From IMG/VR virus record IMGVR_UViG_2541047873_000006: a stretch of 37,458 nucleotides of DNA, one strand, 5' to 3'. A program made the translations under genes and the position numbers. The notes beneath the pieces were generated by a model, which worked only from the letters and a program-made list of their open reading frames with translations, made no database searches and had not been told where the DNA came from. Source of the stretch: a virus. Taxonomy: Duplodnaviria; Heunggongvirae; Uroviricota; Caudoviricetes. Positions 3,797 through 37,458 of the stretch are shown here, one piece after another; position 1 is the first letter of the stretch, and the number at the start of each line of letters is the position of its first letter.

Positions 3797-3819
3797 GGTT
3801 ACTGGACAAAGGGGGTGCA

Positions 3820-4582: not shown

Positions 4583-4673
4583 GAAACCAGAACATGCACA
4601 CACAAAAAAACCGCTTGCCATGCCGCAATCAGTCAGGTTACATTTCCGCTGCACCTCATAAAACGGGTGCCGG

Positions 4674-13997: not shown

Positions 13998-14151
13998 TGC
14001 TCCCCCTGAGTAATTACAGGAAGATTACCCGCGCGCGAAACCGTTCTCCTTAACCCCCTGTTCTGGCCGTTTTCTTACAACAAAAGCCCTTTGTATCAGC
14101 CTGTTACGCTTTGCCATCATGACTGAAGAACCAGTCAGAGGGGCAAAAACT
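13998..14151. promoter_or_regulatory. Divergent late promoter region between P and O
   Basis: By analogy with P2 P_P/P_O; a canonical TGT-N12-ACA Ogr dyad was not found by eye. Confidence 0.35.
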
Positions 14152-19431: not shown

Positions 19432-20059
19432 GGCATTCACCCGCGTGGATGAAACCTTTGAGGCCATCCGCGACAGCCTGAATCAGCAGGCCATCAATAA
19501 CATCGCCAGAAAGCTGGCACAGGATTTACGCCGCGCCCAGCAGGCGCGTATCCGGTCACAGAAAGCGCCGGACGGGACCGCGTGGACACCACGCAGACGC
19601 CGCGTAACCCGGATACAGGAACGCATTCGCTTTATCTGGAATAACGAAGCACGCACGCTGAAAAACTGGCATCACGACACGGGGAAATACGGGCGAACCA
19701 TTACCGGGTGGGATGAGGATAAAAACAATATCCGCACGTTTTACCGGGATGACATCGACCGTTTTCTGGAAATACGCACCCGGCGCATCAACCAGGACAG
19801 CACAAAGCGCGTCCCCATGTTTGTAAAACTGCGCACCGCCCGCTACCTGAAAGCCCGTGCAGATGCTTCCGGTGTGACGGTGGGTTACAGCGGCGTGGCC
19901 GCACGTATTGCACGCGTTCATCAGTTCGGTGAGCGCGATCAGGTTGCGCCGGGCATTTTCACCGATTACCCGGTACGTGAGCTGCTGGGCATCAGCCAGG
20001 CAGATGAGCGCCTGATTTATAACACGGTGCTGGGCCGGATTGCGGAGGCTGTACGGTGA
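19424..20059 (+). CDS. S: Tail completion / virion morphogenesis protein S (P2 gpS-like)
   Basis: ATG 19424 overlaps the R stop, in frame with track ORF 19415..20059; about 60 aa longer than recalled P2 S. Confidence 0.7.
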   Translation: MDKAFTRVDETFEAIRDSLNQQAINNIARKLAQDLRRAQQARIRSQKAPDGTAWTPRRRRVTRIQERIRFIWNNEARTLKNWHHDTGKYGRTITGWDEDKNNIRTFYRDDIDRFLEIRTRRINQDSTKRVPMFVKLRTARYLKARADASGVTVGYSGVAARIARVHQFGERDQVAPGIFTDYPVRELLGISQADERLIYNTVLGRIAEAVR

Positions 20060-20637
20060 GCGCAGAACTCATGCGACTGCTGAGCAATATCATCCGCACC
20101 GGGATCATCTCTGAAGTTGATGAGGAATCCTGGTGCGTGCGCGTTCGCAGCGGCGAACTGGAAACAGGCTGGCTGCGCTGGAACACCACGCGCGCGGGAG
20201 CCTTCAATGTGTGGTTGCCGCCATCACCCGGCGAACAGGTGGTAATTGCCTGCATCGGCGGCAACCCGGAAACAGCCATGATAATTGGCAGCCTGTGGAG
20301 TGATGCCAATCCGGCCCCCGGCAAAAGCCTGAAAGAAATCGTGGTCAGCGCGCCGGATGGCGCGGTGTTCCGCTACGACGCAGACGCAGGCGCACTGAGC
20401 GCCAGCGGCATGAAAACAGCCACCCTGCAGGCATCCGTCAGCGTGACACTGGACACGCCTGTCGTGGAATGCACAGACCTTCTGAGAACAGCGACGCTTG
20501 ACGTCACAAAAGGGGGAACGATGAGCGGCAATATCACGCACAGCGGCGGCGACTTCACCTCAAACGGCATCACAGTGCATACGCATAAGCACGGTGGCGT
20601 TAAAGGTGGCAGCGATTCGACAGGAGGCCCGCAGTGA
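20056..20637 (+). CDS. V: Baseplate assembly/spike protein V
   Basis: Track ORF; ATGA overlap with S; size and order as P2 V. Confidence 0.85.
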   Translation: MSAELMRLLSNIIRTGIISEVDEESWCVRVRSGELETGWLRWNTTRAGAFNVWLPPSPGEQVVIACIGGNPETAMIIGSLWSDANPAPGKSLKEIVVSAPDGAVFRYDADAGALSASGMKTATLQASVSVTLDTPVVECTDLLRTATLDVTKGGTMSGNITHSGGDFTSNGITVHTHKHGGVKGGSDSTGGPQ

Positions 20638-22414: not shown

Positions 22415-25150
22415 ATGAGCACGAAATTTAAAACCGTTATCACTACTGCCGGAGCCGCAAAGCTGGCTGCCGCCACTGTCCCCGGCGGGAAAAAAGTAAA
22501 CCTGTCTGCAATGGCCGTGGGTGACGGTAATGGCAAATTACCGGTGCCGGATGCCGGTCAGACGAAACTGGTGCATGAGGTCTGGCGTCACGCTCTGAAT
22601 AAAGTCAGTGTGGATAATAAGAATAAAAACTATATTGTGGCTGAACTGGTTGTTCCGCCAGAAGTGGGCGGCTTCTGGATGCGTGAGCTTGGTCTGTATG
22701 ACGATGCCGGAACACTGATTGCGGTATCCAACATGGCAGAAAGCTATAAGCCAGAACTGGCTGAAGGCTCCGGACGTGCGCAGACCTGCCGCATGGTTAT
22801 TATTCTCAGCAACGTGGCGTCCGTTGAGCTGAGTATTGATGCCAGCACAGTGATGGCTACGCAGGATTACGTCGATGACAAAATCGCAGAGCATGAGCAG
22901 TCCCGCCGCCATCCTGACGCCACGCTGACAGAAAAAGGTTTTACTCAGTTAAGCAGTGCAACAAACAGCACCAGTGAAAAGCTGGCGGCAACGCCAAAAG
23001 CGGTCAAGGCTGCGAATGACAACGCAAATTCACGTCTGGCGAAAAATCAGAACGGTGCAGATATCCAGGATAAATCAGCTTTTCTGGACAATGTTGGCGT
23101 TACCAGCCTGACGTTTATGAAAAACAATGGCGAAATGCCGCTTGATGCTGATCTGAATACGTTTGGTCCTGTTAAGGCTTATTCAGGTATCTGGTCTAAA
23201 GCAACATCCACCAACGCAACACTGGAGAAAAATTTCCCGGAAGATAATGCTGTCGGTGTGCTTGAGGTTTTTGCTGCCGGCAATTTTGCAGGTACGCAAC
23301 GCTTTACCACGAGAGACGGCAATGTATACATGCGTAAACTCGCCAATAAGTGGAATGGCACTGATGGTCCGTGGGGCGTATGGCGTCACACTCAATCTGC
23401 TACCCGCCCTTTGAGTACGACTATAGACCTGAATACGCTTGGAGCCGCCGAGCATCTTGGTTTATGGCGTAACAGTAGCTCAGCTATAGCTTCATATGAA
23501 CGCAATTATCCAGAGGAAGGCGGCTTTGCTCAGGGGATGCTTGAGATCCTCGAAGGCGGAAATTATGGAAGAACGCAACGTTATACCACTCGCCGTGGAA
23601 ATATGTACGTCCGCTGCCTTGCGGCAAGCTGGGATGCATCAAATCCGCAGTGGGAACCGTGGTTAAGAGTCGGTCATCAGTCAGAGAGTCGTTATTACGA
23701 CGGGGATTTGAATGATGTGACTTCACCAGGTATTTACAGCGTTACAGGTAAAGCGAGCAACGGTCCAATACTGGATGGAAACGGCGTGACAGTCCTCGGT
23801 ATTCTGGAAGTGTTGAGGCGCTTTGATGGTGTTAACGTATGGCAGCGTTATACAACTGCCGGAACAGGTACAACCCTTAAAGGTCGCACGTTTGAGCGCG
23901 TTTTTACCGGCAGCTCATGGAGCGAATGGCGGGAAGTTTACACATCTTATTCACTTCCCCTGAATCTGGGTATCGGCGGCGCAGTAGCAAAACTATCCAG
24001 TCTGGACTGGCAGACCTACGATTTTGTGCCGGGCAGTCTGATAACCGTTCGGCTTGATAATATGACCAACATTCCCGACGGTATGGACTGGGGCGTCATT
24101 GATGGCAACCTGATAAACATCGCAGTTGGTCCGAGTGATGATTCCGGTACGGGGCGCTCAATGCATGTATGGCGCAGCACTGTAAGTAAAGCGAACTACC
24201 GCTTTTTTATGGTGCGTATTTCAGGAAATCCGGGAAGCCGCACGATCACAGCAAGACGAGTACCAATCATTGACGAAGCCCAGACATGGGGCGCGAAACA
24301 GACATTCAGTGCTGGCCTTTCTGGTGAACTGTCCGGCAATGCGGCGACAGCAACAAAGCTGAAAACAGCCCGTAAAATTAATAACGTTTCGTTTGATGGG
24401 ACATCAGATATTAACCTGACGCCGAAAAATATTGGTGCATTTGCTTCAGGAAAAACAGGAGACACCGTTGCGAATGATAAAGCCGTTGGATGGAACTGGA
24501 GTAGCGGAGCCTATAACGCAAATATTGGTGGGGCATCAACGTTAATTCTTCATTTTAATATCGGTGAAGGAAGTTGCCCCGCCGCCCAGTTCCGCGTTAA
24601 TTATAAGAACGGCGGTATTTTTTATCGTTCTGCTCGTGACGGTTACGGATTCGAGGCTGACTGGTCTGAGTTTTATACCACAACGCGAAAACCTACAGCG
24701 GGAGATGTCGGTGCACTGCCGTTATCTGGTGGTCAATTGAATGGTGCTCTGGGTATAGGAACATCCAGTGCTCTTGGCGGTAATTCGATTGTTTTGGGTG
24801 ATAATGACACGGGCTTTAAACAAAATGGTGATGGTAATCTGGATGTTTATGCTAATAGCGTCCATGTTATGCGCTTTGTCTCCGGAAGCGTTCAAAGTAA
24901 TAAAACCATAAATATTACGGGGCGTGTTAATCCCTCGGATTACGGTAACTTTGATTCCCGTTATGTGAGAGATGTCAGACTTGGCACACGTGTTGTCCAG
25001 GTCATGCAGAAAGGGGTGATGTATGAGAAAGCAGGCCATGTAATTACCGGGCTTGGCATTGTCGGCGAAGTTGATGGCGACGATCCGGCAGTATTCAGAC
25101 CAATACAAAAGTTAATTAACGGAACGTGGTACAACGTGTCACAGGTGTAA
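22415..25150 (+). CDS. H: Tail fibre protein (P2 gpH-like), 911 aa
   Basis: Track ORF; conserved N-terminal block MSTKFKTVITTAGAAKLAAA...WMRELGLYDDAGTLIAVSNMAESYKPELAEGSG as in P2 H; large variable C-terminal part with internal repeats. Confidence 0.85.
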   Translation: MSTKFKTVITTAGAAKLAAATVPGGKKVNLSAMAVGDGNGKLPVPDAGQTKLVHEVWRHALNKVSVDNKNKNYIVAELVVPPEVGGFWMRELGLYDDAGTLIAVSNMAESYKPELAEGSGRAQTCRMVIILSNVASVELSIDASTVMATQDYVDDKIAEHEQSRRHPDATLTEKGFTQLSSATNSTSEKLAATPKAVKAANDNANSRLAKNQNGADIQDKSAFLDNVGVTSLTFMKNNGEMPLDADLNTFGPVKAYSGIWSKATSTNATLEKNFPEDNAVGVLEVFAAGNFAGTQRFTTRDGNVYMRKLANKWNGTDGPWGVWRHTQSATRPLSTTIDLNTLGAAEHLGLWRNSSSAIASYERNYPEEGGFAQGMLEILEGGNYGRTQRYTTRRGNMYVRCLAASWDASNPQWEPWLRVGHQSESRYYDGDLNDVTSPGIYSVTGKASNGPILDGNGVTVLGILEVLRRFDGVNVWQRYTTAGTGTTLKGRTFERVFTGSSWSEWREVYTSYSLPLNLGIGGAVAKLSSLDWQTYDFVPGSLITVRLDNMTNIPDGMDWGVIDGNLINIAVGPSDDSGTGRSMHVWRSTVSKANYRFFMVRISGNPGSRTITARRVPIIDEAQTWGAKQTFSAGLSGELSGNAATATKLKTARKINNVSFDGTSDINLTPKNIGAFASGKTGDTVANDKAVGWNWSSGAYNANIGGASTLILHFNIGEGSCPAAQFRVNYKNGGIFYRSARDGYGFEADWSEFYTTTRKPTAGDVGALPLSGGQLNGALGIGTSSALGGNSIVLGDNDTGFKQNGDGNLDVYANSVHVMRFVSGSVQSNKTINITGRVNPSDYGNFDSRYVRDVRLGTRVVQVMQKGVMYEKAGHVITGLGIVGEVDGDDPAVFRPIQKLINGTWYNVSQV

Positions 25151-25153
25151 TTT

Positions 25154-25681
25154 ATGCAGCATTTAAAAAACATTGTCGCCGGCAATCCAAAAACCGTTGA
25201 GCAATATCAGCTAACAAAAAATTTTAATGTTGCCTGGCTGTGGTCAGAAGACGGAAAAAACTGGTATGAGGAAGTGAAGAACTTTCAGCCGGACACAATA
25301 AAAATTCTTTACGACGAGAACAATATTATTGTGGCTGTAACCAGAGACGCTTCAACACTGGACCCTACAGGCTACAGCGTTGTCGAAGTTCCCGATATCA
25401 CCGCCAATCGTCGCGCCGACGATTCAGGAAAGTGGCTGTTTAAGGACGGAGCTGTGGTTAAACGGATTTATACGGCAGACGAGCAGCAACAGCAGGCCGA
25501 ATTACAAAAGGCCGCATTGCTTTCCGAAGCTGAATCAGTCATCCAGCAGCTGGAACGCGCTGTCAGGCTGAATATGGCGACGGATGAGGAGCGCACACGA
25601 CTGGAAGCCTGGGAACGCTACAGCGTTCTGGTCAGCCGTGTGGATACAGCAAAGCCCGAATGGCCACAAAAGCCTGAGTAA
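25154..25681 (+). CDS. G: Tail fibre assembly chaperone (P2 gpG-like), 175 aa
   Basis: Track ORF directly after H; size as P2 G. Confidence 0.8.
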
Positions 25682-25895
25682 AAATTAAGCTCCGATATCG
25701 GGCCTTCTCTCATTCTGGTTGTTCGGGAAACGTTACTGGCAGGCCGGAGGTGTCTGTGGATTCGACTTTCTACGCGTAGAGCATCCATTCGGTTAATTTT
25801 TGTTTATTCTCGTCGGAAATGATGCCCAGCCGTAGCTGTGAGCACCATAGGCGATATACAGACTGAAGAAACAACCAGGCAGATCCAGGAAAAAG

Positions 25896-25928
25896 AAAAC
25901 CGCTAATCTGAACATTAGCGGTTTTTTG
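25896..25928. terminator. Bidirectional intrinsic terminator between convergent G and U
   Basis: AACCGCTAAT-CTGAAC-ATTAGCGGTT stem-loop flanked by an A-run on the left and TTTTTT on the right. Confidence 0.65.
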
Positions 25929-25935
25929 CGTTAAT

Positions 25936-26430
25936 TCAGAACAGCCCTTTAACTGAACTGGTTGCGCTGTTAAGAGATGATGTCACCTTATCTTTGAAGC
26001 CGGACAGCATATCGCTGAACGATGAGGATTGCAGGCGCTCCCGCAAATCCTCATCACAGCGTTCAAGGGTCAGTGAAAATTCTATCTTTTTCGCCTTACC
26101 GTAGCGATCAAACTCGGAACGGGTCGTATTCGTTTCGGTCAGAACATACATGCCGTAAATCTGCCCGACGCCATCAATAAGAGGCCAGGGGCGTCCTGTA
26201 TACGCCTGCGTGGTCAGCAGCGACAGTGACACTTCACCACCTGTAATTTCAGGATAAAGCACACCAGAAAGAACAATACGATCATCGCCTGCCCCGATAT
26301 ACTGCCAGCTTGCTGAACGGTTAACGCGTTCATTTTTCACATGCCGCCAGCTTTTATTTTGCTGTAACTGCTGATGCGGCAACGTGCGCAGCTCAAAAAC
26401 AAACATGCCGTAGATCATCATCATGGCCAT
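25936..26430 (-). CDS. U: Tail protein U (P2 gpU-like), 164 aa
   Basis: Track ORF; N-terminus MAMMMIYGMFVFELRT resembles P2 U (MMMVLG-FVF-LRT as recalled); directly downstream of the tape measure gene on the same strand. Confidence 0.75.
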   Translation of the reverse strand: MAMMMIYGMFVFELRTLPHQQLQQNKSWRHVKNERVNRSASWQYIGAGDDRIVLSGVLYPEITGGEVSLSLLTTQAYTGRPWPLIDGVGQIYGMYVLTETNTTRSEFDRYGKAKKIEFSLTLERCDEDLRERLQSSSFSDMLSGFKDKVTSSLNSATSSVKGLF

Positions 26431-26436
26431 GACTCC

Positions 26437-29280
26437 TCAATCTTTATCGTAAAAACTGCCACGTCCGGCACGGGCGCGCCGTTCCATCTCTGCCCTGACC
26501 ATTTCACCGACCAGTTTCGCCAGTTCGCGGGGATTCTGCGTAACAACGTTATGCAGATGAACATGAATTTCACCACCAAATCCGGAGGCAACAGGCTCCC
26601 GGTTACGGGAAGTTACAGGAACTGATGCCACTGGAGATCGTATGGCCTCCGCCACCGGGCGGGAGCTGGCCGCAACAACAGGGACCAGCGCCGGAGGCAG
26701 CGGAGCCGGGACCACGGGTGTGATATTAATTGCGGGGGCAGGCTTACTGACCTGTGCAATCTTCCGCTCCTGCCACTCCCCACGAACAGCAAGTGCGCGG
26801 GGCAGGTTCTTAAAGACAATATCGCCGGGGCCAATGCGTTTTTTCGTCTCATCAACCAGCTTACCTGTGTTATCAGCAATTTTGCTGAGTCTGCGTAGCG
26901 TCCCGGTATTGCTGTCTGTGAGCGGTTTGTTGTCTTTGGGTTTATGACCTCCGGTGCCATTGCCATTTTCCACAGGCTTCGGCGGATTGATTTTCGCAAG
27001 GTCCCCCTGAAGCAAGGCAACCTTGTCCTGAAGAATGGCCGCACGCTGTGCGTCTTCGATTTTCTTGCGCGCCCTTTCCGCTTCATCCGGAAGAACACCG
27101 AGTTTTTCAAGTATCCACGCCAGCGTATCCAGCAACATTTTTGCAGGCGTCATAACAAGCTGTAACGCGCCACCAAGAACGTTACCGAATATCTCGCCAG
27201 CACTGGTACATTTATCCAGCGTTTCCTTGCTGGACTCCATCGGTGACAGCAGCAATTTAAACCAGTTAAACACCTGGCTGATCCCGCTTCCGATTGCGTC
27301 AAAAACAGGGCCAAACCGTTCAAAGGTTTCACGCAACGGGTTCAGCCTTTCCATAATCCCGCTGAACACCCCGGCAAAAAATGCCCTGATGGGATCCCAG
27401 TATTTCCAGATAAGTACGGCAGCTCCGGCAAGCGCAGCCACGATAAGACCAACCGGACTGAACAGCGCCCCGATAGCGCCTCCCAGCAAAGAAACGGAAC
27501 CCGTCAGCATTCCCCACAGCGCAGGCAACACCCTGACGACATTCATTGACCGGGTAAGAATGTCAAAACCAAGACGCAGGGTGGCCAGCTTTCCGTAAAG
27601 CACCCCAATAACCAGCGACAACGAGCCAATCGTTGCAGTCATTGCCAGCAACGCACCGCCTGCTATCAGTAGCTGGCGCGTCAGTACCGGATGGGCCTGC
27701 GCCAGCGAGGTGATTTTTTCAAGCACCCGCGTGAGCCACTGCGTGACAGAACGCAGCGGACCGTCAACCAGATCACTGATGCGAATACGAAGACCTTCCC
27801 ATGCGCTGTCGAGATTTTTCAGGTCCCCATCAAGATTATCGGCCATTACTTTTGCAACGCGATCGGCCTCTCCCCTTGCCCCCTGCAGTTCTCTGGTCAG
27901 TTTTTGCAGCTCTCCTGAACCAGCCGCCGCAACAAGCGTCTGCAAACCAACGAACGCCTCTTCTCCGGCGATGTCCTTGAAGAAGGAGACCTGGTCCACC
28001 TGTCCGTATTTTTGTGTCGCCTTATAGAGATCAAGCAGCACATCCTCCATCGGGCGCATTTTGCCTCTGGCGTCAGCAACTGACACCCCCAGCTCTTTCA
28101 GTGCATCAGCCGCAGCTTTTGGCGGTGATGCAAGGCGGGACAGACTTGCGCGCATGGCCGTGCCAGCATCGCTTCCGCGAAGACCATTATTGGCAAGCAT
28201 CCCGGCCATGGCCGCCGCTTCTTCAAGACTGATACCAAGTTTTGCGGCAACCGGACCGGTATACTTCATGGTTTCGCCCAGCGCGCGTAAATCAGTATTG
28301 GTCCGGGTAAATGCTGCTGTCAGCGTATCGCCCACCCGGTCCATTTGATCGGCTGTCAGGTTGAACTGTGTGAGGATATTGGAGCCTATATCCGCCGTCT
28401 CGCCGAGTTCGACGCCACCTGCCAGCGCCATATTAAGAACACCGGGCAATGCGGCCTGAATGGCCTGCGGAGTAAAACCAGCCATTGCCAGAAAGCTCTG
28501 CCCACTGGCGGCATCACTCGCAGTAAACTGTGTTTCAGAGCCAAGTTTTAACGCCTGCTCACGCAGCGCCTTAAACTGCGGGCTGTTTTTGTCGATTCGC
28601 GTCAGTGCCTGAACGCGGGACATCTCTTTGCCGAACCCGAGCGCAGGCTGCAAAAAACGCCCGGCAGCATAGCCGCCCGCCGCTGCCGCACCAATTGCCA
28701 GCGCACCACCTGTTTTCAGTTTTCCCGCGGTTTCCTGCGCGCGCGAATACCGCTCACGCGCCCGCGTTACACGCGCAAGCGCCTGCCGTTCGCGTTCAAG
28801 CTGGTTGTTGTACTGTTCGGTGCGTCTGATGGCCTGCTGGATGGTGTTATCGCTGCCTGTCAGGGAAATGCCGTGGCGTTTCAGCTCTCCGCCAAGCTCC
28901 CGCATTTTCTGAATTTCCCGTGTGCGCGATTCATTCAGGCGTTCAAGCCGGGTGCTTAACTGCTGCATCAGCTTTTGTTGTTTTTCGCTGAGCACTGTAC
29001 CCGTGCGTTGTAACTGATTAAGGGCGTTAAGCTGGCGTCGTGCTTTCACGATACCCGCATCCGCTTTACTGACAGCGTCGCGGGCGCGCTCAAATGATCG
29101 CGCCTGACGCTCGAGATTTTTGATCGCCCCCTGCGTTCGCTGGATGGAGTCACCAAACTGCCCCATCAGGCGGCGGGCGTTTTCGGCAGGCCGGGTCAGC
29201 CTGTCAACGGCGCTGAAAGCGACCCGGATATCAAGAGTCTTCATTGTCTGCATTCCCGCTGCGAAGTGCCGCCCGCTCAC
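26437..29280 (-). CDS. T: Tail tape measure protein (P2 gpT-like), 947 aa
   Basis: Track ORF; long Ala/Gly/Leu-rich coiled-coil and hydrophobic segments; follows E/E'. Confidence 0.85.
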   Translation of the reverse strand: MSGRHFAAGMQTMKTLDIRVAFSAVDRLTRPAENARRLMGQFGDSIQRTQGAIKNLERQARSFERARDAVSKADAGIVKARRQLNALNQLQRTGTVLSEKQQKLMQQLSTRLERLNESRTREIQKMRELGGELKRHGISLTGSDNTIQQAIRRTEQYNNQLERERQALARVTRARERYSRAQETAGKLKTGGALAIGAAAAGGYAAGRFLQPALGFGKEMSRVQALTRIDKNSPQFKALREQALKLGSETQFTASDAASGQSFLAMAGFTPQAIQAALPGVLNMALAGGVELGETADIGSNILTQFNLTADQMDRVGDTLTAAFTRTNTDLRALGETMKYTGPVAAKLGISLEEAAAMAGMLANNGLRGSDAGTAMRASLSRLASPPKAAADALKELGVSVADARGKMRPMEDVLLDLYKATQKYGQVDQVSFFKDIAGEEAFVGLQTLVAAAGSGELQKLTRELQGARGEADRVAKVMADNLDGDLKNLDSAWEGLRIRISDLVDGPLRSVTQWLTRVLEKITSLAQAHPVLTRQLLIAGGALLAMTATIGSLSLVIGVLYGKLATLRLGFDILTRSMNVVRVLPALWGMLTGSVSLLGGAIGALFSPVGLIVAALAGAAVLIWKYWDPIRAFFAGVFSGIMERLNPLRETFERFGPVFDAIGSGISQVFNWFKLLLSPMESSKETLDKCTSAGEIFGNVLGGALQLVMTPAKMLLDTLAWILEKLGVLPDEAERARKKIEDAQRAAILQDKVALLQGDLAKINPPKPVENGNGTGGHKPKDNKPLTDSNTGTLRRLSKIADNTGKLVDETKKRIGPGDIVFKNLPRALAVRGEWQERKIAQVSKPAPAINITPVVPAPLPPALVPVVAASSRPVAEAIRSPVASVPVTSRNREPVASGFGGEIHVHLHNVVTQNPRELAKLVGEMVRAEMERRARAGRGSFYDKD

Positions 29281-29467
29281 GCCAGCTAACCACTTCGCCG
29301 GGCGTCATCATGAAGATTTCGGCGGGCGACCAGTTAAAAATGGCGGCAATATCCGCCACAAAGTCTTCTATGTGCTCAAAGCACACAACCGTGATCAGGC
29401 TTCCGTCGCCTGTTCGTTCTTCCCGCCAGAGTCCGCACCGCTCAAAAAATTTACGGCAACCACACAT
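29231..29467 (-). CDS. E': E' frame: -1 frameshift extension of tail assembly chaperone (E+E' fusion)
   Basis: Track ORF in the -1 frame overlapping the 3' end of E and the start of T; slippery heptamer inferred from both protein frames. Confidence 0.6.
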   Translation of the reverse strand: MCGCRKFFERCGLWREERTGDGSLITVVCFEHIEDFVADIAAIFNWSPAEIFMMTPGEVVSWRERAALRSGNADNEDS

Positions 29468-29760
29468 AACTGAATAAAGTCACGGGATGCCATTTTTTTG
29501 ATCGTCACTTCATCCAGTCGCGGTGATGTCACGCGTGACAGCAGCGTAAACATGGATTCCGCTTTCAGATTCAGCACATCAGACAGCGACAAATCTCGCA
29601 GAGATCCAGCCTGCTCAATAGCCCCGGTGATCTCCACATACGTGATTTTTTCGCCGCCTCGCTCAATTGGTTGGGTAAGTTTTACGCCACGCTCACTGGT
29701 TTCTTTCACAGTGTCAGTAACTACCATGTTTTCGGTATCGATGTTTTTCGTCTCTTTCAT
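29395..29760 (-). CDS. E: Tail assembly chaperone E (P2 gpE-like), 121 aa
   Basis: Track ORF between tail tube FII and tape measure T. Confidence 0.8.
   Translation of the reverse strand: MKETKNIDTENMVVTDTVKETSERGVKLTQPIERGGEKITYVEITGAIEQAGSLRDLSLSDVLNLKAESMFTLLSRVTSPRLDEVTIKKMASRDFIQLCVVAVNFLSGADSGGKNEQATEA
29443..29449 (-). other. Programmed -1 ribosomal frameshift slippery site T-TTT-TTG
   Basis: E frame reads ...A V N F L (GTA AAT TTT TTG) and the E' frame reads K F F E (AAA TTT TTT GAG) over the same DNA. Confidence 0.55.
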
Positions 29761-29814
29761 CAGGAAACTCCTTTCAGTCAGAGGCGACGCACTGCGCCGC
29801 CTGCATATTACTTA

Positions 29815-30327
29815 TCAGCCAAGCCCGAGCGCGGAACGGATGCGATCGGGCACAATGTCCTTGCCGTCCTTCCGGTAAATGAAGTTCAGCAGGTCAATCT
29901 CCCACAACGGGCGATCGTTAACACTCAGCTTGTAGTAGGTGTTTTTAATGGCGTAAGTGTGTGATGTGGCTTCGCCCTGTTTGGCTTCCCCCATATCAAT
30001 TTCCGTCACACGTCCGCGCATTTCGACTTCATACAGGTCGCTTTCTGCATCGGTGTAGTATTCACCCGCAAAACGCAGCAGCGTGCCGTCAATCGTGCCG
30101 CCATACTTAAGGAACAGCTCACGAACTGCGCCCCCCATGACAAAGCTCGCATCAAGCGCGGAGTCGTCCAGACCGAGATCAATACTTACCGCACCCATCA
30201 TGCCACCACCCCGGTAGCTGTCGGTTTTGCGCGTCAGCTTAGGTAGAGTGACAGACGTCACCTTACCCACTTCGTTTTCACCATCCACAAACAGCGTAAA
30301 AAAGCGAAGATGTTTTGGTACAGCCAT
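29815..30327 (-). CDS. FII: Tail tube protein (P2 gpFII-like), 170 aa
   Basis: Track ORF; size and position after the sheath gene. Confidence 0.85.
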   Translation of the reverse strand: MAVPKHLRFFTLFVDGENEVGKVTSVTLPKLTRKTDSYRGGGMMGAVSIDLGLDDSALDASFVMGGAVRELFLKYGGTIDGTLLRFAGEYYTDAESDLYEVEMRGRVTEIDMGEAKQGEATSHTYAIKNTYYKLSVNDRPLWEIDLLNFIYRKDGKDIVPDRIRSALGLG

Positions 30328-31511
30328 CAGGCACCTCCCAGCACCGCAAATGCGGGACCAAAGAATTCATCAGTAAACGACTGGTAAAGCTCCATGTCTT
30401 CCAGCGGGGGAACAGGCGTATATTTGTAGCGAATACGCACGCGCCCCTGACGTAAATTCGTGGTGCCGTTATCCACCACGTCATACCAGCACGACGCCCC
30501 AATCAGTTTCCCGGCAGTAACCAGTGAATCCAGTTTTGCCCTGATGGCACTGATAACATCTTTCACGTTCGCAGGCGTCAGTGGACTGTCGATGGTTTCA
30601 AACTGCGCTTCCGCAATTGAATCAGCCAGCACCTGTGCGGTTCGGGTATACACCTCAAAGATGTAGGCGTTCGTTTCCGGTGTGCGGTTGCCCCAGAAGC
30701 GGAACCCGTTGCGACGAATAATGGTCGTGATTTCTTTGTTGTTGAGGCTGTTGGCATCGCTGTCTTCGGCCTGCAACGACCAGAACACATGCCTGGACAT
30801 TCCCAGCACATTTTTAACCGGAACGTTGGACAGCGATTTGTGCCAGCCCTGCTCATGGTCAATGTACGCACGAAGACCGCACGCATAAGCAGGCGCGGGG
30901 AACGTTTCGTTTTTGCCACTTTTCGGGTTGTAGGCGATGAAGTCAGGCCATAAGAGCATCACCTCACGTTCGTTGAATTTCTGGCGGTAGGTAATCGCCT
31001 CAGCCATCGTGTTACAACCATGACATGTGGCATACACAAACGCGCGCAGTTTACCCGCAATCACGCACAGGGATTTTGTCACCGCCTCCGTGTCCAGCTC
31101 CGGCGCGGCCAGAATACGCGGACGGTATCCGATGCTTTCATCCTGCTCTGCAACAAGCAGCGCATACATCCCCGTATAGCTGCCGTCATCCTCAGAACCA
31201 CCGATAACCAGTTGATCCTGCGTCTTACCGTCTTCTCCTTTGTGTTCAGCCACGCGAACGACGATCACCTTTGTGCTCACCTGGTCTGCGATGGCCTTAA
31301 GCGCACGATAAAGCGTCCCCGTTGTTCCGCATTTTCCCAGCACGTCATTGACGCGGGTCAGCAGTGTGGGCTTGTTCAGCGGGAACAGCTTCGCGTCCGC
31401 ATCATCCGCCGTTGCCACGATACCGATAACGCTGGAATCAACATCGTTAATCGCTGTTACCAGGTCGGTATTTTCCGTAACACGGGCACCATGAAAACGA
31501 GTTTCACTCAT
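30327..31511 (-). CDS. FI: Contractile tail sheath protein (P2 gpFI-like), 394 aa
   Basis: Track ORF; ...FPLNKPTLLT...GTLYRALKAIADQ...KVIVVRVAE aligns with the recalled P2 FI N-terminus; overlaps FII start. Confidence 0.9.
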   Translation of the reverse strand: MSETRFHGARVTENTDLVTAINDVDSSVIGIVATADDADAKLFPLNKPTLLTRVNDVLGKCGTTGTLYRALKAIADQVSTKVIVVRVAEHKGEDGKTQDQLVIGGSEDDGSYTGMYALLVAEQDESIGYRPRILAAPELDTEAVTKSLCVIAGKLRAFVYATCHGCNTMAEAITYRQKFNEREVMLLWPDFIAYNPKSGKNETFPAPAYACGLRAYIDHEQGWHKSLSNVPVKNVLGMSRHVFWSLQAEDSDANSLNNKEITTIIRRNGFRFWGNRTPETNAYIFEVYTRTAQVLADSIAEAQFETIDSPLTPANVKDVISAIRAKLDSLVTAGKLIGASCWYDVVDNGTTNLRQGRVRIRYKYTPVPPLEDMELYQSFTDEFFGPAFAVLGGA

Positions 31512-31668
31512 AGCTTCAGCCCCTTGTATCCGTTAAATGATTCGGCAACAATCATCACCCACCACGCGCGTAATCTCACCCCTGCGCCGTTCTCCCGCCA
31601 CGGCGACAACAAAAAGCAGTAACCCCCTACGCACGCACATGCGACCATGCCGCACAGGGAGGGAACAG
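31512..31668. promoter_or_regulatory. Divergent promoter region between FI (minus) and D (plus)
   Basis: Both genes initiate from this 157-bp spacer; no canonical TGT-N12-ACA dyad seen by eye. Confidence 0.35.
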
Positions 31669-32778
31669 ATGACCGATACCACCATGCAATTGCTCAGTCA
31701 GAGCACAGACCCCGTGAAAATGCCGGATTTTGATATTCTCGCGGAGGGGGAAACACTGTCCGGCGTGGCAGAGCGCCTGATGAGCCTGTCACTGACCGAC
31801 AACCGGGGATTTGAAGCGGACCAGCTCACCATCACGCTGGATGATGCGGATGGTCAGTTGCAGCTACCGCCACGGGGCGCGCGCCTGACGGTTCTCATTG
31901 GCTGGAAAGGAGAACCGCTGACAGAAAAAGGCACTTACATTGTTGATGAAATCGCTCACGAAGGACCGCCGGACAGGCTGACGGTTTCAGCCAGAAGCGC
32001 AGATTTTCGGGATGAATTTAACGTTAAACGTGAGGTGTCCTGGCATGATGTGACCGTTGAGCGCGTGGTATCCGCCATCGCTCATCGGTATGGTCTGAAA
32101 CCGCAAATCAGCGAAATGCTGATGGATATCGAAATCGACCACGCCGACCAGACTGAAGAAAGCGACATGTCCTTCCTTACGCGCATGGCGGAAATGCTGG
32201 GCGCAATCACCACGGTAAAAAGCGGTAATCTGTTATTCATCATGCCCGGCGGTGGCGTGAACGCACAGAGCCAGCCGTTGCCATCGTTCGCCATCACACG
32301 CAGCAGCGGCGATCGCCATCAGTTCCGCATTGCTGACCGCGAGGCGTATACGGGGGTACGCGCTTACTGGCTTGATCTTAATTACGGGAAAAAGAAAAAA
32401 GTCAGCGTGAAACGCCGCAAACCGCCAAAACCCAAAAAGGAGAAAAGCATCAGCCGTGAAGGTGATTATATGGAAGGCGCGGAAGGCAATGTGTTTGTGT
32501 TACGCAAGACTTATCAGAACGAGCAGGCAGCAAGACGCGCAGCGGCGGCAAAGTGGCAGCAGCTACAACGCGGAGCCGCATCATTTTCCATCACGCTGGC
32601 GCGTGGACGTGCAGAACTCTACCCCGAAATGCATGGCACGGTAACAGGATTTAAAAGCGAGATTGATAATCAGGACTGGATTATTGCGAAAGCCGAGCAC
32701 ACCATTGATAACAGCGGCTTTACCACACAGCTTGAGCTTGAGGCAAAAATCCCGGAATGGATAGCAGAAACAGAGTGA
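31669..32778 (+). CDS. D: Tail protein / late control protein D (P2 gpD-like), about 369 aa
   Basis: Track ORF 31537..32778; start at MTDTTMQ (ATG 31669) with GGGAGGG Shine-Dalgarno; size as P2 D. Confidence 0.8.
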   Translation: MTDTTMQLLSQSTDPVKMPDFDILAEGETLSGVAERLMSLSLTDNRGFEADQLTITLDDADGQLQLPPRGARLTVLIGWKGEPLTEKGTYIVDEIAHEGPPDRLTVSARSADFRDEFNVKREVSWHDVTVERVVSAIAHRYGLKPQISEMLMDIEIDHADQTEESDMSFLTRMAEMLGAITTVKSGNLLFIMPGGGVNAQSQPLPSFAITRSSGDRHQFRIADREAYTGVRAYWLDLNYGKKKKVSVKRRKPPKPKKEKSISREGDYMEGAEGNVFVLRKTYQNEQAARRAAAAKWQQLQRGAASFSITLARGRAELYPEMHGTVTGFKSEIDNQDWIIAKAEHTIDNSGFTTQLELEAKIPEWIAETE

Positions 32779-32845
32779 GCAACTTAGACATATTAGCTCA
32801 AACTTAAACTGGCAAGTTTACAGTATAGAATTAAACATAAACGAC

Positions 32846-32876
32846 GGTCCGCTCCGTGTCAGAAGCGGACTTTGTC
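32846..32876 (+). terminator. Candidate terminator after D
   Basis: GTCCGCT...AGCGGAC stem-loop followed by TTTGTC; weak. Confidence 0.3.
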
Positions 32877-32898
32877 ATCCCTATGTAAGGTTGATTGC

Positions 32899-33921
32899 TT
32901 AATACGCATTTAATTTAAATTTGTATTTGCCTTCTATGTAATGGATAAATTCAATTATGCTTTTTTCTATCGCATCTAATATATGAATATATCCATCCCG
33001 ATTTAAGGTCCTATCCAACTCAAAGTGATGAACTATCCCATGTCTATATTGTATGATTTCAGAAATTCGATTCTCAAGAAAATCAACTGATTTTCCAATT
33101 CTTTTTTTCTTATAAAGAATCGCTCTCACATCTATATCCAGCCACTCTTTATATGCTTTGTTTAGGTGGGTTAAGTTTTGAAAAGTGTAATTTCTTGCAA
33201 TAACACTTTCTATTGAAATATTTCCTTTCTCTATCTCAAGCAGAATATCAAAATCAACTTTTTGCTTATACGATGTTCTTTTTGCTATTGCGAAAGGATC
33301 GTACTTTATAAGTATTTGAAAAGCTCTAGAGAAAAAGTATTCAAACATAGCAACCGCAAAAGGTACTAATCCATTATATATAACTCTACTGGGATCCATA
33401 CATTGCATGTAATCAAAGTATTCGGATAAGCCGCCATCTTCCGGTAGGTTTAATTTAATAGAAGGTTCAGGTAAGGCATGTTTAACAGCGGAAATCTCAT
33501 GATGGACATGATTAAATATTGAAGAAATGCCACGACTGATCGGACTACTAGAATCCTTCCATAGAGGAGCGTACCTATTTTTCCCATAATCACCTATAAG
33601 TGTTCCACCAAAAAGACTCCTTGCGCCTTTTAGAACATCATTAAGCATTTTTACATCATGCCAACTAGCGCTATATAAATTACGCACATGCAATGCCCAT
33701 TTATTACCAGATATGTGTAATTCGTCATTTGAAACAGGATATATATCAGCCGAAACTCCATCTGTAGATTTGAAGTCTGTATCATCAAACCAAGAGTAAT
33801 TCAACGTTCCTTGGGGCCATTCCCACAAATGTTTACACCTTTTAAAACCTAAATTTTCAAGGTAATTTTTAAGTTCGTTTCTAGTTGCTTTTTTAGGGTA
33901 CAGCGTTATATCTCTTCCCAT
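32899..33921 (-). CDS. AT-rich cargo gene between D and ogr; 340-aa protein with C-terminal HEPN-like R-x4-H motif (candidate abortive-infection/defence effector)
   Basis: Track ORF; visibly lower GC than the flanking phage genes; opposite strand to D and ogr; motif ...IIQYRHGIVHH... in a predicted helical C-terminal half. Confidence 0.65.
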   Translation of the reverse strand: MGRDITLYPKKATRNELKNYLENLGFKRCKHLWEWPQGTLNYSWFDDTDFKSTDGVSADIYPVSNDELHISGNKWALHVRNLYSASWHDVKMLNDVLKGARSLFGGTLIGDYGKNRYAPLWKDSSSPISRGISSIFNHVHHEISAVKHALPEPSIKLNLPEDGGLSEYFDYMQCMDPSRVIYNGLVPFAVAMFEYFFSRAFQILIKYDPFAIAKRTSYKQKVDFDILLEIEKGNISIESVIARNYTFQNLTHLNKAYKEWLDIDVRAILYKKKRIGKSVDFLENRISEIIQYRHGIVHHFELDRTLNRDGYIHILDAIEKSIIEFIHYIEGKYKFKLNAY

Positions 33922-34112
33922 GCTTTATTCACCTGATATACAATATTTTAAATTTTAACTATTATGAACGTATGAATTTTCACATTGGATGTATGGAAGT
34001 TCAACAACTATTGAAAGTTCAATTTTCACTCTTCGCACAGAGCGAGCTGTTAGTTGGAATTAGGGATCGTACAATCTAGAATAGCGGCAACACCACGTTA
34101 AGGGAGGTCGCT

Positions 34113-34373
34113 ATGTTCCGTTGTCCGCTTTGTGGCGCATCTGCCCGTATCCGCACAAGTCGTCCGGAAAATGATTCAAACACCGTGCGGCAAAAGTATT
34201 ACCAGTGTAACAATCTGGAATGCGGCGTATGCTTCTCAACACTGGAAGCTTTCCATAAATTCACATCGAAACACGCCTCCGGCGTTCACTCTTCAGAAGG
34301 TATCCCGTGGCATGAGCTACCAGCTTCACACAGGGGAAACAATCAGATGAGTTTGCCTTTACCTCAGAATTAA
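34113..34373 (+). CDS. ogr: Late gene activator Ogr/Delta-family zinc-finger protein, 86 aa
   Basis: MFRCPLCGASARIRTSR...YYQCNNLECGVCF matches the recalled P2 Ogr (MFHCPLCQHAAHARTSR...YHQCQNVNCSATF) with the same Cys spacing; GGGAGG Shine-Dalgarno. Confidence 0.8.
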   Translation: MFRCPLCGASARIRTSRPENDSNTVRQKYYQCNNLECGVCFSTLEAFHKFTSKHASGVHSSEGIPWHELPASHRGNNQMSLPLPQN

Positions 34374-34964: not shown

Positions 34965-35297
34965 ATGGCATTAATCAAATGTCCTGAATGCCAGAAAGAG
35001 GTGAGCGATTCAGCATTGTATTGCCCTGCTTGCGGTAAACAAATAAAAAAACTTAAGCGTTCATTTTTTGGAAAGCTCATTAAGTGGATATTTATATTAT
35101 TTAATATTTTTATGATCTATACGCTTTTAGTTGGACTGGGAGGCACTAGTGAAATAATAAATAATGCTACATCCGATGCCGAAAAAGCCGGTGCAGTTAT
35201 TGGTACAGGCTTAGGTTTAATTACCATTGGAAGTTTATGGGTTATTGGCGATATCATTATCGGAATTTTAGTATTTCTTACTAAACCAAAAGGATAA
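34965..35297 (+). CDS. Zinc-ribbon membrane protein (110 aa), AT-rich cargo
   Basis: Track ORF with AAAGGAGG Shine-Dalgarno; CPEC-x12-CPAC ribbon then two hydrophobic helices. Confidence 0.6.
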   Translation: MALIKCPECQKEVSDSALYCPACGKQIKKLKRSFFGKLIKWIFILFNIFMIYTLLVGLGGTSEIINNATSDAEKAGAVIGTGLGLITIGSLWVIGDIIIGILVFLTKPKG

Positions 35298-35301
35298 CAA
35301 A

Positions 35302-36195
35302 ATGAAAAATATAATTTTTTCTATAGGTGCATCATTTATATCAATTAGTGTACTGCCTGTTCACGCAGCAACTGAACATAATAACTTCAATGCAGTACTC
35401 CAGTGCCGAGCAATAGAAAATAATAAAGACAGACTTTCTTGTTACGATAAGTCAATACAACCGACTCGAACGAAAGTTGCTGAAAAATTCGAAAGCAGAG
35501 ATCAATGCCCTGATGAGAAAGATGATGACAGACGTTTATCTTGTTATGATCGTTTTTTTTCTCCAACATTTACTCCATCTGTAAACTCAAAATCTAAAAC
35601 GGAAAAGCCAGTAACAACAGAGGCTCAGCAACCAAATCTTTCTGAGATATCTAAATGCCGAGCAGAAAATGATAAAGAAGCCAGACTAAACTGCTACGAT
35701 AAACTATTCCCACAGGATAAAGCTGTTCAAGCTGAATCAAAATTAGAGAAAGCCACAGATGTAGGAAAATGGCACACATCCATTACTACATCGCCAATTG
35801 ATGATTCGAAAAATGTAATTTTATCGTTAGAAAGTGATGATTATATCAGAACTCCATTTGGAGAAGCGGTTACTCCCACTCTGTTTATAGCTTGCCGAGA
35901 AAAGAAAACCGAAGTATTTCTTAGTTGGGATGTATATTTAGGCCTTGAACAAACCAGCATGCTTTATCGTCTTGATAAACAGAAAGCAGTTGAGCGAAAC
36001 TGGCTAGTATCTACAGATACAAAGGCTGTTTTTTATAAAGGTAATGACATTGATTTCATCCGAAAACTAGCCAACTCAAACAAAATGTATACAAAAATAA
36101 CTCCTTATAATGAGAGCCCTGTAAGTGCAACTTTCAATTTAAACGGCCTGTCAAACGCGCTAAAACCACTTCAAGCTGCTTGTAACTGGAAATAG
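35302..36195 (+). CDS. Secreted protein with three Cys-pair repeats (297 aa), AT-rich cargo
   Basis: Track ORF; signal-peptide-like N-terminus; three repeats of C-x(7-9)-RL-x-CYD-[KR]; starts 5 nt after the previous stop. Confidence 0.65.
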   Translation: MKNIIFSIGASFISISVLPVHAATEHNNFNAVLQCRAIENNKDRLSCYDKSIQPTRTKVAEKFESRDQCPDEKDDDRRLSCYDRFFSPTFTPSVNSKSKTEKPVTTEAQQPNLSEISKCRAENDKEARLNCYDKLFPQDKAVQAESKLEKATDVGKWHTSITTSPIDDSKNVILSLESDDYIRTPFGEAVTPTLFIACREKKTEVFLSWDVYLGLEQTSMLYRLDKQKAVERNWLVSTDTKAVFYKGNDIDFIRKLANSNKMYTKITPYNESPVSATFNLNGLSNALKPLQAACNWK

Positions 36196-36221
36196 CATAA
36201 ATCATGTGGCTTAGCCACAAT

Positions 36222-36266
36222 CACAGATAACACAAAGCCCGTGAAAACGGGCTTTGTGTTATCTGT
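36222..36266 (+). terminator. Long perfect palindrome / terminator-like hairpin after the cargo operon
   Basis: CAGATAACACAAAGCCCG-TGAAAA-CGGGCTTTGTGTTATCTG, an 18-19 bp perfect stem; not followed by a clean T-run. Confidence 0.45.
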
Positions 36267-36276
36267 AACTCGAAAA

Positions 36277-36297
36277 TGTGGTCACTACGTGGACACG
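36277..36297. repeat. Candidate attR core (imperfect copy of sequence at window 10-30)
   Basis: TGTGGTCACTACGTGGACACG versus CGTGGACACTGCGTGGACACT at positions 10-30 (17 of 21 identical); similarity stops on both sides. Confidence 0.3.
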
Positions 36298-36462
36298 TGC
36301 TGATATAAATCCTTTTATATCAATAAATTAAATCATCATTTTTTTCATCAACAAGGATTTTCACGTTTGTGTTACCTGTATGAGACGAGAGTTAACCGGA
36401 CAAGTGTGCCATAATCTCGCGGCCAGGCATACTTGCGAAGATTTCAGGTATAAGGATACGTA

Positions 36463-37458
36463 ATGATACAACCTATTTCCGGCCCTCCTCCTGGGCAACC
36501 ACCAGGTCAGGGAGATAACCTGCCGTCTGGCGCGGGCAATCAGCCTTTATCCAGTCAGCAACGTACTTCGCTGGAAAGCTTAATGACGAAAGTGACCTCA
36601 CTGACGCAACAGCAAAGAGCAGAACTGTGGGCGGGTATCAGGCACGATATTGGTCTGTCGGGAGATTCACCGCTGCTTTCGCGTCACTTCCCTGCCGCTG
36701 AGCATAATCTGGCGCAACGTCTGCTGGCCGCGCAAAAAAGCCATTCTGCCCGCCAGCTTTTAGCGCAATTAGGGGAGTATCTACGTCTGGGGAATAATCG
36801 TCAGGCGGTCACGGATTATATCCGTCATAACTTTGGTCAGACGCCGCTGAATCAGCTCTCTCCGGAGCAATTAAAGACCATTCTCACCCTGTTGCAGGAA
36901 GGGAAGATGGTTATTCCGCAACCTCAGCAGCGCGAGGCGACCGACCGTCCGTTATTACCGGCGGAGCACAATGCGCTCAAACAGCTGGTGACCAAACTTG
37001 CGGCGGCAACGGGAGAACCCAGCAAGCAGATCTGGCAATCGATGCTGGAACTTTCCGGGGTGAAAGATGGCGAGTTAATTCCAGCGAAACTGTTTAACCA
37101 TCTGGTGACCTGGCTACAGGCGCGTCAGACGCTAAGCCAGCAAAATACGCCGACGCTTGAATCACTACAGATGGCGCTGAAACAACCTTTAGATGCCAGT
37201 GAACTGGCGGCGTTATCGGCATATATCCAGCAAAAATATGGTCTTTCTGCGCAATCATCGCTTTCTTCAGCCCAGGCCGAGGATATTCTTAATCAGCTTT
37301 ATCAACGGCGGGTTAAAGGGATTGATCCGCGTGATATGCAACCGCTGCTTAATCCTTTTCCACCGATGATGGACACGTTGCAAAATATGGCAACGCGTCC
37401 CGCGCTGTGGATACTGTTAGTCGCGATTATCCTGACGCTGGTCTGGCTGGTTCGTTAA
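36463..37458 (+). CDS. flk: Host gene resembling flagellar regulator Flk (C-terminally membrane-anchored), 331 aa
   Basis: Track ORF; Pro/Gly/Gln-rich N-terminus MIQPISGPPPGQPPGQ and a single C-terminal hydrophobic anchor (PALWILLVAIILTLVWLVR); identification is from memory. Confidence 0.55.
   Translation: MIQPISGPPPGQPPGQGDNLPSGAGNQPLSSQQRTSLESLMTKVTSLTQQQRAELWAGIRHDIGLSGDSPLLSRHFPAAEHNLAQRLLAAQKSHSARQLLAQLGEYLRLGNNRQAVTDYIRHNFGQTPLNQLSPEQLKTILTLLQEGKMVIPQPQQREATDRPLLPAEHNALKQLVTKLAAATGEPSKQIWQSMLELSGVKDGELIPAKLFNHLVTWLQARQTLSQQNTPTLESLQMALKQPLDASELAALSAYIQQKYGLSAQSSLSSAQAEDILNQLYQRRVKGIDPRDMQPLLNPFPPMMDTLQNMATRPALWILLVAIILTLVWLVR

Follow-up and report, generated by a model that had tools for sequence, protein, structure and literature searches.

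In the record of phage P2 (AF063097), the late genes V, W, J, I, H and G are followed by the oppositely oriented fun(Z) and then by the F operon, in which the promoter pF precedes FI, FII, E, E', T, U and D, with ogr further downstream. The genes for these seven products make up a single rightward operon that runs in the direction of V-G, U overlaps D, and E' is reached from E by an annotated −1 frameshift on TTTTTTG. The late promoters of P2 and their TGT-N12-ACA consensus are summarized in PMC3931495. At pF, this dyad lies about 83 nt (82.5 nt) upstream of the FI start codon, with its perfect TGT half distal to FI. At the divergent promoters pP and pO, the two start sites (3016 and 3127) lie 111 bp apart around a single annotated site (3057-3087).

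A different arrangement is found in phage P88 (Xuanwuvirus; NC_026014/KP063541) and its close relatives PhiR44_2, P884B11, 500465-2 and Citrobacter phage phiSM: H and G are followed by U, T, E', E, FII and FI on the opposite strand, and then by D and ogr, with a spacer of 157 bp between FI and D. Likewise, Salmonella phages SEN4 and SEN5 (Senquatrovirus) and Klebsiella phage Kp4871-3 (Reginaelenavirus) have an inverted FI-U block and a divergent D. The inverted order itself is already known from phages of this clade; an explicit description of the inversion is absent from the papers on P88, SEN4/5, phiSM and Serratia PP4, and it likewise goes unmentioned in a comparison of Burkholderia P2-like phages, a paper on the classification of Myoviridae and a survey of P2-like viruses from 2026.

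Here, we describe a stretch of 37,458 nucleotides from the IMG/VR virus record IMGVR_UViG_2541047873_000006 (Caudoviricetes), referred to in its full length as the window. Over the 8-kb region 25000-33000, to which the comparison applies, it is 93.7% identical to P88 at the nucleotide level across 97% of the positions. It shares the gene order and the 157-bp FI-D spacer of the P88 group, and differs from P88 in two respects: the stretch between G and U is about 2 kb longer in P88, where the extra sequence comprises an inverted G'-H' cassette and a DNA invertase gene, and D and ogr are separated in the window by a cargo gene of low GC content. From SEN4/SEN5 and Kp4871-3, the window is set apart by a gpD that is only 62-72% identical, as well as by genus, host and tail fibres. 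In our reading, which we consider highly probable, the window is a P88-like prophage in which a single ancient inversion, fixed in the ancestor of the clade, left one activator dyad to serve the divergent promoters pF and pD.

Gene content and orientation

The contractile tail set of the Peduoviridae is complete in the window, with FI, FII, T, gpU, gpD and Ogr/Delta each scoring above the Pfam gathering cut-off. On the plus strand, the tail-collar fibre gpH (22415-25150; Phage_tail_fib, Phage_fiber_2) is followed by the tail fibre assembly protein gpG (25154-25681; Caudo_TAP, E = 7.6e-36), the final gene of the rightward baseplate and fibre operon. The minus strand then carries the tail protein gpU (25936-26430; Phage_P2_GpU, E = 5.5e-39), the tape measure gpT (26437-29280; PhageMin_Tail), the tail assembly chaperone gpE (29395-29760), the tail tube gpFII (29815-30327; Phage_tube, E = 7.5e-47) and the tail sheath gpFI (30327-31511; Phage_sheath_1, Gp18_domIII_N, Phage_sheath_1C). 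The T reading frame opens at GTG 29280, but a length comparison with P88 suggests that the true start is probably ATG 29244 or 29253. gpE was assigned by its tblastn match to P2 E (32%), its position and its frameshift partner: the minus-strand E' extension (29231-29449, within the frame 29231-29467) matches Phage_P2_GpE and, as judged from the sequence and its translations, is reached as in P2 by a programmed −1 frameshift at a T-rich slippery heptamer upstream of T (T TTT TTG, 29449->29443).

The baseplate hub or late control protein gpD (31669-32778; Phage_GPD) is encoded on the plus strand. Its start is most likely ATG 31669, which is kept in relatives and stands just behind the ribosome-binding site GGGAGGG; this choice gives the FI-D spacer its 157 bp. 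A longer in-frame reading of D from 31537 was rejected as not conserved, since the spacer lengths of relatives differ by non-multiples of three.

The whole FI-U block (25936-31511) is therefore inverted relative to P2, and D forms a separate divergent unit instead of abutting U. The block converges on G across an intrinsic terminator hairpin that a terminator scan places on both strands at 25894-25927, with folding energies of −16.6 (plus) and −15.7 (minus) kcal/mol, z-scores of −4.0 and −3.7, and T runs on either side. In these points, our analysis agrees with the first-pass annotation of the window, which had described the inversion, the convergence with G across a bidirectional terminator and the divergence of FI and D. 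It had also placed D alone on the plus strand; the strand is right, but D is not the only such gene, as an Ogr/Delta-family zinc-finger late activator (CX2C-X24-CX4C; 34113-34373; Ogr_Delta, E = 5e-14) is encoded in the same orientation downstream. Between D and this ogr homolog lies the minus-strand cargo gene of low GC content that P88 does not have, and a PADLOC search returned no match for it.

Distribution of the inverted order

The order U−, T−, E−, FII−, FI−, D+, Ogr+ is invariant among relatives. In a survey of 89 fetched loci, it is present in all 62 classifiable loci whose gpD is at least 60% identical to that of the window, while the canonical order is present in all 25 classifiable loci with gpD identities of at most 53%, among them P2, Wadgaonvirus, Felsduovirus and Firavirus. 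The inverted order occurs in three ICTV genera (Xuanwuvirus, Senquatrovirus and Reginaelenavirus), and P88, PhiR44_2, SEN5 and Kp4871-3 share the synteny of the window. The length of the FI-D spacer is likewise kept, at 140-162 bp. Trees of D and of FI, which are unrooted and were built by quick neighbour-joining from the best 80 of 340 genome hits, each contain a split that divides inverted from canonical loci.

Given this distribution, the first-pass view of the order as unusual gives way to the alternative that it had itself foreseen, namely that the order is standard in the clade. Its concern about misassembly can also be laid to rest. Only the difference from P2 speaks for a misorientation of the FI-U block in this single assembly, to which we attach practically no probability: of 5426 complete Escherichia coli genomes, 1355, or about a quarter, contain a 757-bp query across the FI/D junction without a break (of the 1375 records that match it, 1357 do so over at least 80% of its length), the 8-kb region with both junctions is colinear in at least 1102 independent complete E. 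coli genomes, and the same order is shared by separately sequenced phages and by genomes of 58 other bacterial species. An assembly artefact is thereby already refuted. The order is an old, fixed rearrangement of a large, known phage clade, ordinary rather than anomalous, and it opens no long-standing question. For annotation, this means that minus-strand FI-U genes beside a plus-strand D are the normal state of a prophage type found in about one in four complete E. coli genomes, and should be taken neither for a misassembly nor for a sign of a degraded prophage. The order also provides a simple marker to tell the P88/SEN4/Reginaelenavirus lineage from P2, 186 and Fels-2-type phages.

A conserved, putative activator dyad between FI and D

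An exact search of the window for TGT-N12-ACA returned no site in the late intergenic regions, which at first suggested a different activator motif. This idea was dropped, as an alignment of the clade reveals a variant of the same element: a TCT-N12-ACA dyad of the Ogr/Delta type at 31591-31608 (centre 31599.5), whose left half is TCT instead of TGT. The form T[GC]T-N12-ACA occurs at the aligned position in 54 of 59 distinct spacers, 34 of which have a perfect TGT-N12-ACA (3.2 expected from shuffles), and is missing in the other five; SEN5 has the perfect form within its 157-bp spacer. Across the clade, the dyad and the FI start codon are 83 ± 2.3 nt apart, much as at P2 pF, and the perfect half of the dyad, which is the best-conserved one, is likewise distal to FI. 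A CCGT-N9-ACGG palindrome at 31587-31603 was also considered as an operator and discarded, as it is conserved solely in the closest relatives.

Further conserved elements hint at promoters on both sides of the dyad. In an alignment of 60 spacers, the NANNAT positions of a putative pF −10 element (GATGAT, 31551-31556, minus strand) are conserved throughout the clade, and would place the pF start site at about 31544. On the other side, the blocks ACAACAA, a CGCGCG-like box (31630-31637) and a second NANNAT are conserved between the dyad and D; the last of these is the putative −10 element of pD (GACCAT, 31643-31648, plus strand), with a predicted start site at about 31655. The −10 elements were picked by eye from the alignment, as were the start sites, and all are predictions. 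With them, the NANNAT hexamers on either side of the dyad centre (~55.5 nt) would give start sites 111 bp apart, the same distance as between pP and pO of P2, which also have one dyad midway. The two pairs differ in that pP and pO serve packaging and capsid genes and FI/D serve tail genes, for which the start sites and the dependence on Ogr are predicted; sequence homology between them was not detected beyond short motifs. Global alignments of pD with pP, pO or pF were no better than those of shuffled sequences, and the idea that pD is a duplicate of one of them was abandoned.

The divergent P/O spacer of the window shares a TCT-N12-ACAACAAAAG element with the FI-D spacer. This second dyad, TCT-N12-ACA(ACAAAAG) at 14062-14079, is the counterpart of the activator site shared by pP and pO in P2. 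A position weight matrix built from the FI-D spacers discriminates poorly within the window, where it ranks the P/O site fourth amid matches in coding regions.

Together, these observations lend comparative support to the first-pass proposal that D has a promoter of its own and a control region in common with FI. Alternatively, D may have no activator-dependent promoter and be expressed from a constitutive or an antisense read-through transcript, with the dyad serving pF only. This would fit with the weak predicted −10 element GACCAT, with a D start site that is predicted rather than mapped, and with the looser distance between the dyad and D (72 ± 5 nt) than between the dyad and FI. Yet a read-through transcript would have to run antisense for 5.6 kb and pass a strong two-way terminator to reach D, and the three conserved blocks between the dyad and D would be superfluous for pF. 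Moreover, a single site already serves a divergent pair of late promoters in P2, and D, an essential tail protein in P2, should be required simultaneously with the other tail genes. We therefore regard an activator-independent D as unlikely, and suggest instead that a single Ogr-type site drives FI and D divergently.

We further lean, with some reservation, towards the view that a second Ogr-dependent late promoter working in both directions resides in the FI-D spacer, born when the inversion placed gpD next to the distal half of the pF dyad. If so, D became a late transcription unit of its own, and late transcription in the clade is controlled from two such bidirectional regions, P/O and FI/D. 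In the literature that we searched, no paper describes this bidirectional FI/D architecture or its conservation across the clade.

Origin of the arrangement

We propose that the window represents a P88-like (Xuanwuvirus-type) prophage of the P2 family, and that one ancient inversion of FI-FII-E/E'-T-U was fixed in the ancestor of an Enterobacterales-wide clade of Peduoviridae. The inversion would have cut D away from U and carried pF along with FI and the activator site, so that pF ended up back-to-back with D. From the middle of the spacer, the dyad would then activate the leftward pF, with transcription of FI, FII, E, E', T and U stopping at the two-way terminator behind U, as well as a new rightward pD for D; one central site could serve both promoters because the Ogr-type site is a dyad. 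The activator would be the Ogr homolog encoded downstream of D, as an Ogr-family activator is in P2, and the design would be the one that P2 already employs for pP and pO. The trees of D and FI fit a single origin of the inversion, which we infer from them, and the canonical order of the more distant P2-like phages suggests, given unrooted trees, that this order is the ancestral one. On a modest scale, the locus would illustrate how, in nature, an operon can be split and inverted with both halves staying under the same late regulator, thanks to the dyad symmetry of the activator site.

Since phages exchange tail modules, the block could also be a foreign module that was inserted in the opposite orientation, and the split in the FI tree by itself cannot separate replacement from inversion. 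However, D, which lies outside the block, yields the same split. At the protein level, the FI-U products are 32-46% identical to those of P2 (FI, FII and U 44-46%), gpD 48% and J 55%; the block is thus about as diverged as D and J, which fits an inversion in place rather than the import of foreign genes. Furthermore, the dyad retains both the distance to the FI start codon and the polarity seen in P2, as expected if pF was carried along by an inversion in place. We accordingly consider a module swap very unlikely and favor the in-place inversion.

Another possibility is that the block is phase-variable and still changes its orientation at present, through a site-specific DNA invertase, in the manner of the neighboring Gin/Cin-type tail-fibre switch of P88. 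A DNA invertase gene does stand at the left breakpoint in P88 and some of its relatives, where 42-63 bp separate it from the 3' end of U, and an invertase is found just upstream of FI in canonical-order phages. In the window, by contrast, there is no invertase homolog, and in inverted-type loci, the gene occupies this place in only 4 of 51 cases. As the first-pass annotation had noted for the junctions, no pair of inverted repeats links 25682-25935 with 31512-31668, so crossover repeats are missing. In addition, a single orientation is seen in the 62 loci and the 1355 E. coli genomes. Finally, D is equipped with a conserved ribosome-binding site of its own, predicted promoter elements and a clade-specific N-terminus, which argues that the state is fixed. 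Ongoing inversion is consequently extremely improbable, and the neighboring invertase was also rejected as the cause of the original event, as the window and 47 of the 51 related loci lack it, and there are no crossover repeats. A single, fixed inversion remains our preferred reading.

A cassette remnant between G and U

The G-U junction retains a trace of the material that P88 carries at this place. In a blastn comparison with the P88 locus (L001), positions 25100-25850 of the window correspond to 3079-3829 and positions 25886-26100 to 5823-6037. According to the P88 annotation, the end of the first match (25710-25850, minus strand) is what remains of the 3' end of G', a second tail-fibre-assembly gene in inverted orientation, and the cassette of about 2 kb that contains G', H' and the DNA invertase gene in P88 has been lost from the window.

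Gene order of the tail region

In the annotated P2 record, V W J I H G are followed by fun(Z) on the opposite strand and then by FI FII E E' T U D, read rightward from the late promoter pF, and by ogr. In the window, Pfam matches place H (22415-25150) and G (25154-25681) on the plus strand, U (25936-26430), the tape measure gene T (26437-29280), the tube gene FII (29815-30327) and the sheath gene FI (30327-31511) on the minus strand, and D again on the plus strand. E (29395-29760, minus) is placed between T and FII, where the Pfam GpE domain lies on the -1 frame; a slippery heptamer, T TTT TTG (29449->29443), gives access to this frame, as it does in P2. The comparison of strands thus bears out the first-pass annotation, in which the FI-U block (25936-31511) is inverted relative to P2. 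The most plausible start of D is ATG 31669, preceded by GGGAGGG, which agrees with the 157-bp FI-D spacer proposed there; relatives do not keep a longer in-frame ORF that begins at 31537. A hairpin in the gap between G and U (25894-25927), flanked on each side by T runs, shows good folding on both strands. No inverted repeats joining this left junction with the FI-D spacer were found in the window.

The suspicion that this arrangement reflects misassembly is not borne out, as both junctions recur in many E. coli genomes and the order in the phages P88 and PhiR44_2. The window represents a prophage of the P2 family, and its positions 25000-33000 are 100% identical to the E. coli EcPF14 chromosome. 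The closest phages are P88, PhiR44_2, P884B11, 500465-2 and Citrobacter phiSM; P88 (Xuanwuvirus) matches the 8-kb query with 93.7% identity at 97% coverage, and the P88 and PhiR44_2 annotations have the same order and strands as the window. The 8-kb region is found in one colinear piece in at least 1102 of 5426 complete E. coli genomes. Within the same collection, 1355 genomes match a 757-bp FI/D junction probe without interruption; only 18 of the 1375 records matching it have less than 80% coverage, the sole one among the matches listed being a 36-nt match. The inverted block is neither an artefact nor a peculiarity of this prophage.

Distribution of the inverted order

In tblastn searches of phage records, identity to the gpD of the window falls in steps, from 95-99% in P88-like phages to 62-72% in Klebsiella and Salmonella phages and below 54% in all others, including P2. 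Among the records fetched, SEN5 (Senquatrovirus) and Kp4871-3 (Reginaelenavirus) carry the inverted block, while 500465-1 (Wadgaonvirus), RE2010 (Felsduovirus), vB_YenM_42.18 (Firavirus), Kp4852-2 and P2 are canonical. We extended this comparison to bacterial loci (the best 80 of 340 genome hits, in a scan with one genome per species), assigning each arrangement by tblastn with the tail proteins of the window. All 62 classifiable loci with a gpD at least 60% identical to that of the window, a count that takes in phage loci and the window itself, read U- T- E- FII- FI- D+ Ogr+; all 25 classifiable loci at or below 53% are canonical. Hosts of the inverted type include Salmonella, Edwardsiella, Symbiopectobacterium, Serratia, Erwinia, Pantoea, Enterobacter, Klebsiella, Kosakonia, Brenneria, Xenorhabdus, Photorhabdus, Providencia, Morganella, Yersinia and Hafnia. 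Quick, unrooted neighbour-joining trees, one for D and one for FI, both have a split that parts the two arrangements completely. The P2 order has been described as retained in remoter P2-like phages: D, U and T share one strand in Burkholderia KS5, and the structural genes of phiCTX and RSA1 are overall in P2-like order.

The simplest reading of these sequence comparisons would be one ancient inversion that defines a clade. The FI-U proteins (32-46% identity to P2), D (48%) and J (55%) have diverged similarly from P2, which fits an inversion in place better than the import of a foreign module. The inverted block, rightly read in the first-pass annotation, is thus real yet ordinary, since a common and known phage clade has it as its normal gene order, and its implied unusualness is not borne out. 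Public annotations of phages in recognised genera (P88, SEN4/5, Reginaelenavirus) clearly show this order. We found no comment on it in the papers on P88, SEN4/5, phiSM and Serratia PP4, in a comparison of Burkholderia P2-like phages, in a classification of the Myoviridae or in a 2026 survey of P2-like viruses worldwide.

A proposed divergent control region between FI and D

Across the clade, the FI-D spacer measures 140-162 bp, and an alignment of 60 distinct spacer-region sequences reveals conserved blocks. The central one, T(G/C)T-N12-ACA(ACAA), corresponds to TGT-N12-ACA, the P2-family late promoter element for Ogr-type zinc-finger activators (consensus per PMC3931495). This dyad is present in 54 of 59 distinct spacers and perfect (TGT-N12-ACA) in 34, against 3.2 expected from shuffled spacers; in the window it reads TCT-N12-ACA (31591-31608), so an exact TGT search has no match there. 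Measured from its centre, the distance to the FI ATG is 83 +/- 2.3 nt and that to the D ATG 72 +/- 5 nt; for the P2 pF site, the corresponding distance to the FI ATG is 82.5 nt. The perfect half of the dyad is the FI-distal one, a polarity shared with P2 pF and expected if pF and its site travelled with FI in the inversion. The dyad is flanked by -10-like hexamers, GATGAT towards FI (minus strand, 31556->31551) and GACCAT towards D (plus strand, 31643-31648), whose A2, A5 and T6 are conserved. From these we predict start sites near 31544 (FI) and 31655 (D), which are 111 bp apart and both some 55.5 nt away from the centre of the dyad. The small 'hypothetical protein' calls that annotation pipelines often make in the spacer (31491-31622 in the window; P88 gp50; many PGAP/E. 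coli RefSeq records) are probably spurious, given the promoter-like elements and the indels in the spacer, whose lengths are not divisible by 3.

The same geometry is known from P2, where one activator site (3057-3087) is annotated for both pP and pO, the late promoters of P and O, whose start sites at 3016 and 3127 are likewise 111 bp apart. The P/O spacer of the window carries a TCT-N12-ACAACAAAAG element at 14062-14079 that matches the one between FI and D. The longest ORF of the scaffold gene O opens at 14119, with a second Met at 14152 (MANEKKTSRKKFRV...); O probably starts at the latter, which suits the predicted pO geometry better, as the start site predicted from this dyad is at ~14127. 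At 34113-34373, the window also encodes an Ogr-family protein with the pattern CX2C-X24-CX4C.

An inversion of FI-U would have cut D off from the operon that formerly transcribed it, and read-through from G could reach D only past the terminator hairpin and through 5.6 kb of antisense sequence, so that D would need a promoter within the spacer. We conclude that the FI-D spacer, with its conserved dyad and geometry, is probably a bidirectional late control region like that of pP/pO, with predicted start sites and a putative dependence on Ogr. The shared FI/D control region proposed in the first reading is thereby supported. The bidirectional-promoter logic was established earlier for the P2 pP/pO pair; the small novelty would be that the same dyad serves D as well as FI.

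The left junction and the tail-fibre cassette

We set positions 25682-25935 against P88 (L001, 3830-5822), which has ~2 kb more between G and U, comprising a DNA invertase and the tail-fibre cassette G'-H' in inverted orientation. Of G', the window retains only the 3' end (~140 bp, about 25710-25850). This Gin/Cin-type invertible cassette (G', H', invertase) stands between G and U in P88 and many E. coli prophages and is missing in the window and PhiR44_2. The S/U tail-fibre genes of Mu, D108, P1 and P7 share 82-87% identity with the C-terminal portion of H and with the whole of G. Just 4 of 51 inverted-type loci have an invertase between G and U, and this gene cannot be linked to the proposed ancient inversion. 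FI-U is itself not a switchable segment, as the window showed no crossover repeats and a single orientation occurs across the 62 loci and the 1355 E. coli genomes.

Other loci in the window

The tail-completion gene S (19415-20059) overlaps, at 20056-20059, an ORF (20056-20637) that by position and length should be the baseplate gene V. This leaves no room for a separate pV promoter or a P2-style orf30-type cargo locus, and V-G may be transcribed together with the O operon in this clade. D and ogr adjoin each other in P88, but in the window an insert (32779-34112) lies between them and contains a 340-aa ORF (32899-33921, minus; GC ~0.34) with a sub-threshold Pfam match to HEPN_RiboL-PSP (E=1.2e-4) and no match in PADLOC. 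Just 65 of 5426 E. coli genomes have the insert, compared with 1355 for the FI/D junction, so that the ORF probably represents a cargo or defence-type gene that varies at a hotspot between D and ogr. Downstream of ogr (34965-37458) lie genes for a zinc-ribbon protein (34965-35297) and a VasI (type VI secretion) domain protein (35302-36195, E=2.6e-25), and a last ORF that extends to the window end; the former two also occur in the PhiR44_2 record and therefore seem to belong to the phage cargo and not to the host. Finally, two Rfam matches above the gathering score, the Hfq-binding RNA isrK (4651-4725, plus, 62.8 bits) and the C4 antisense RNA (4761-4848, plus, 78.5 bits), fall in the early/immunity region of the prophage.
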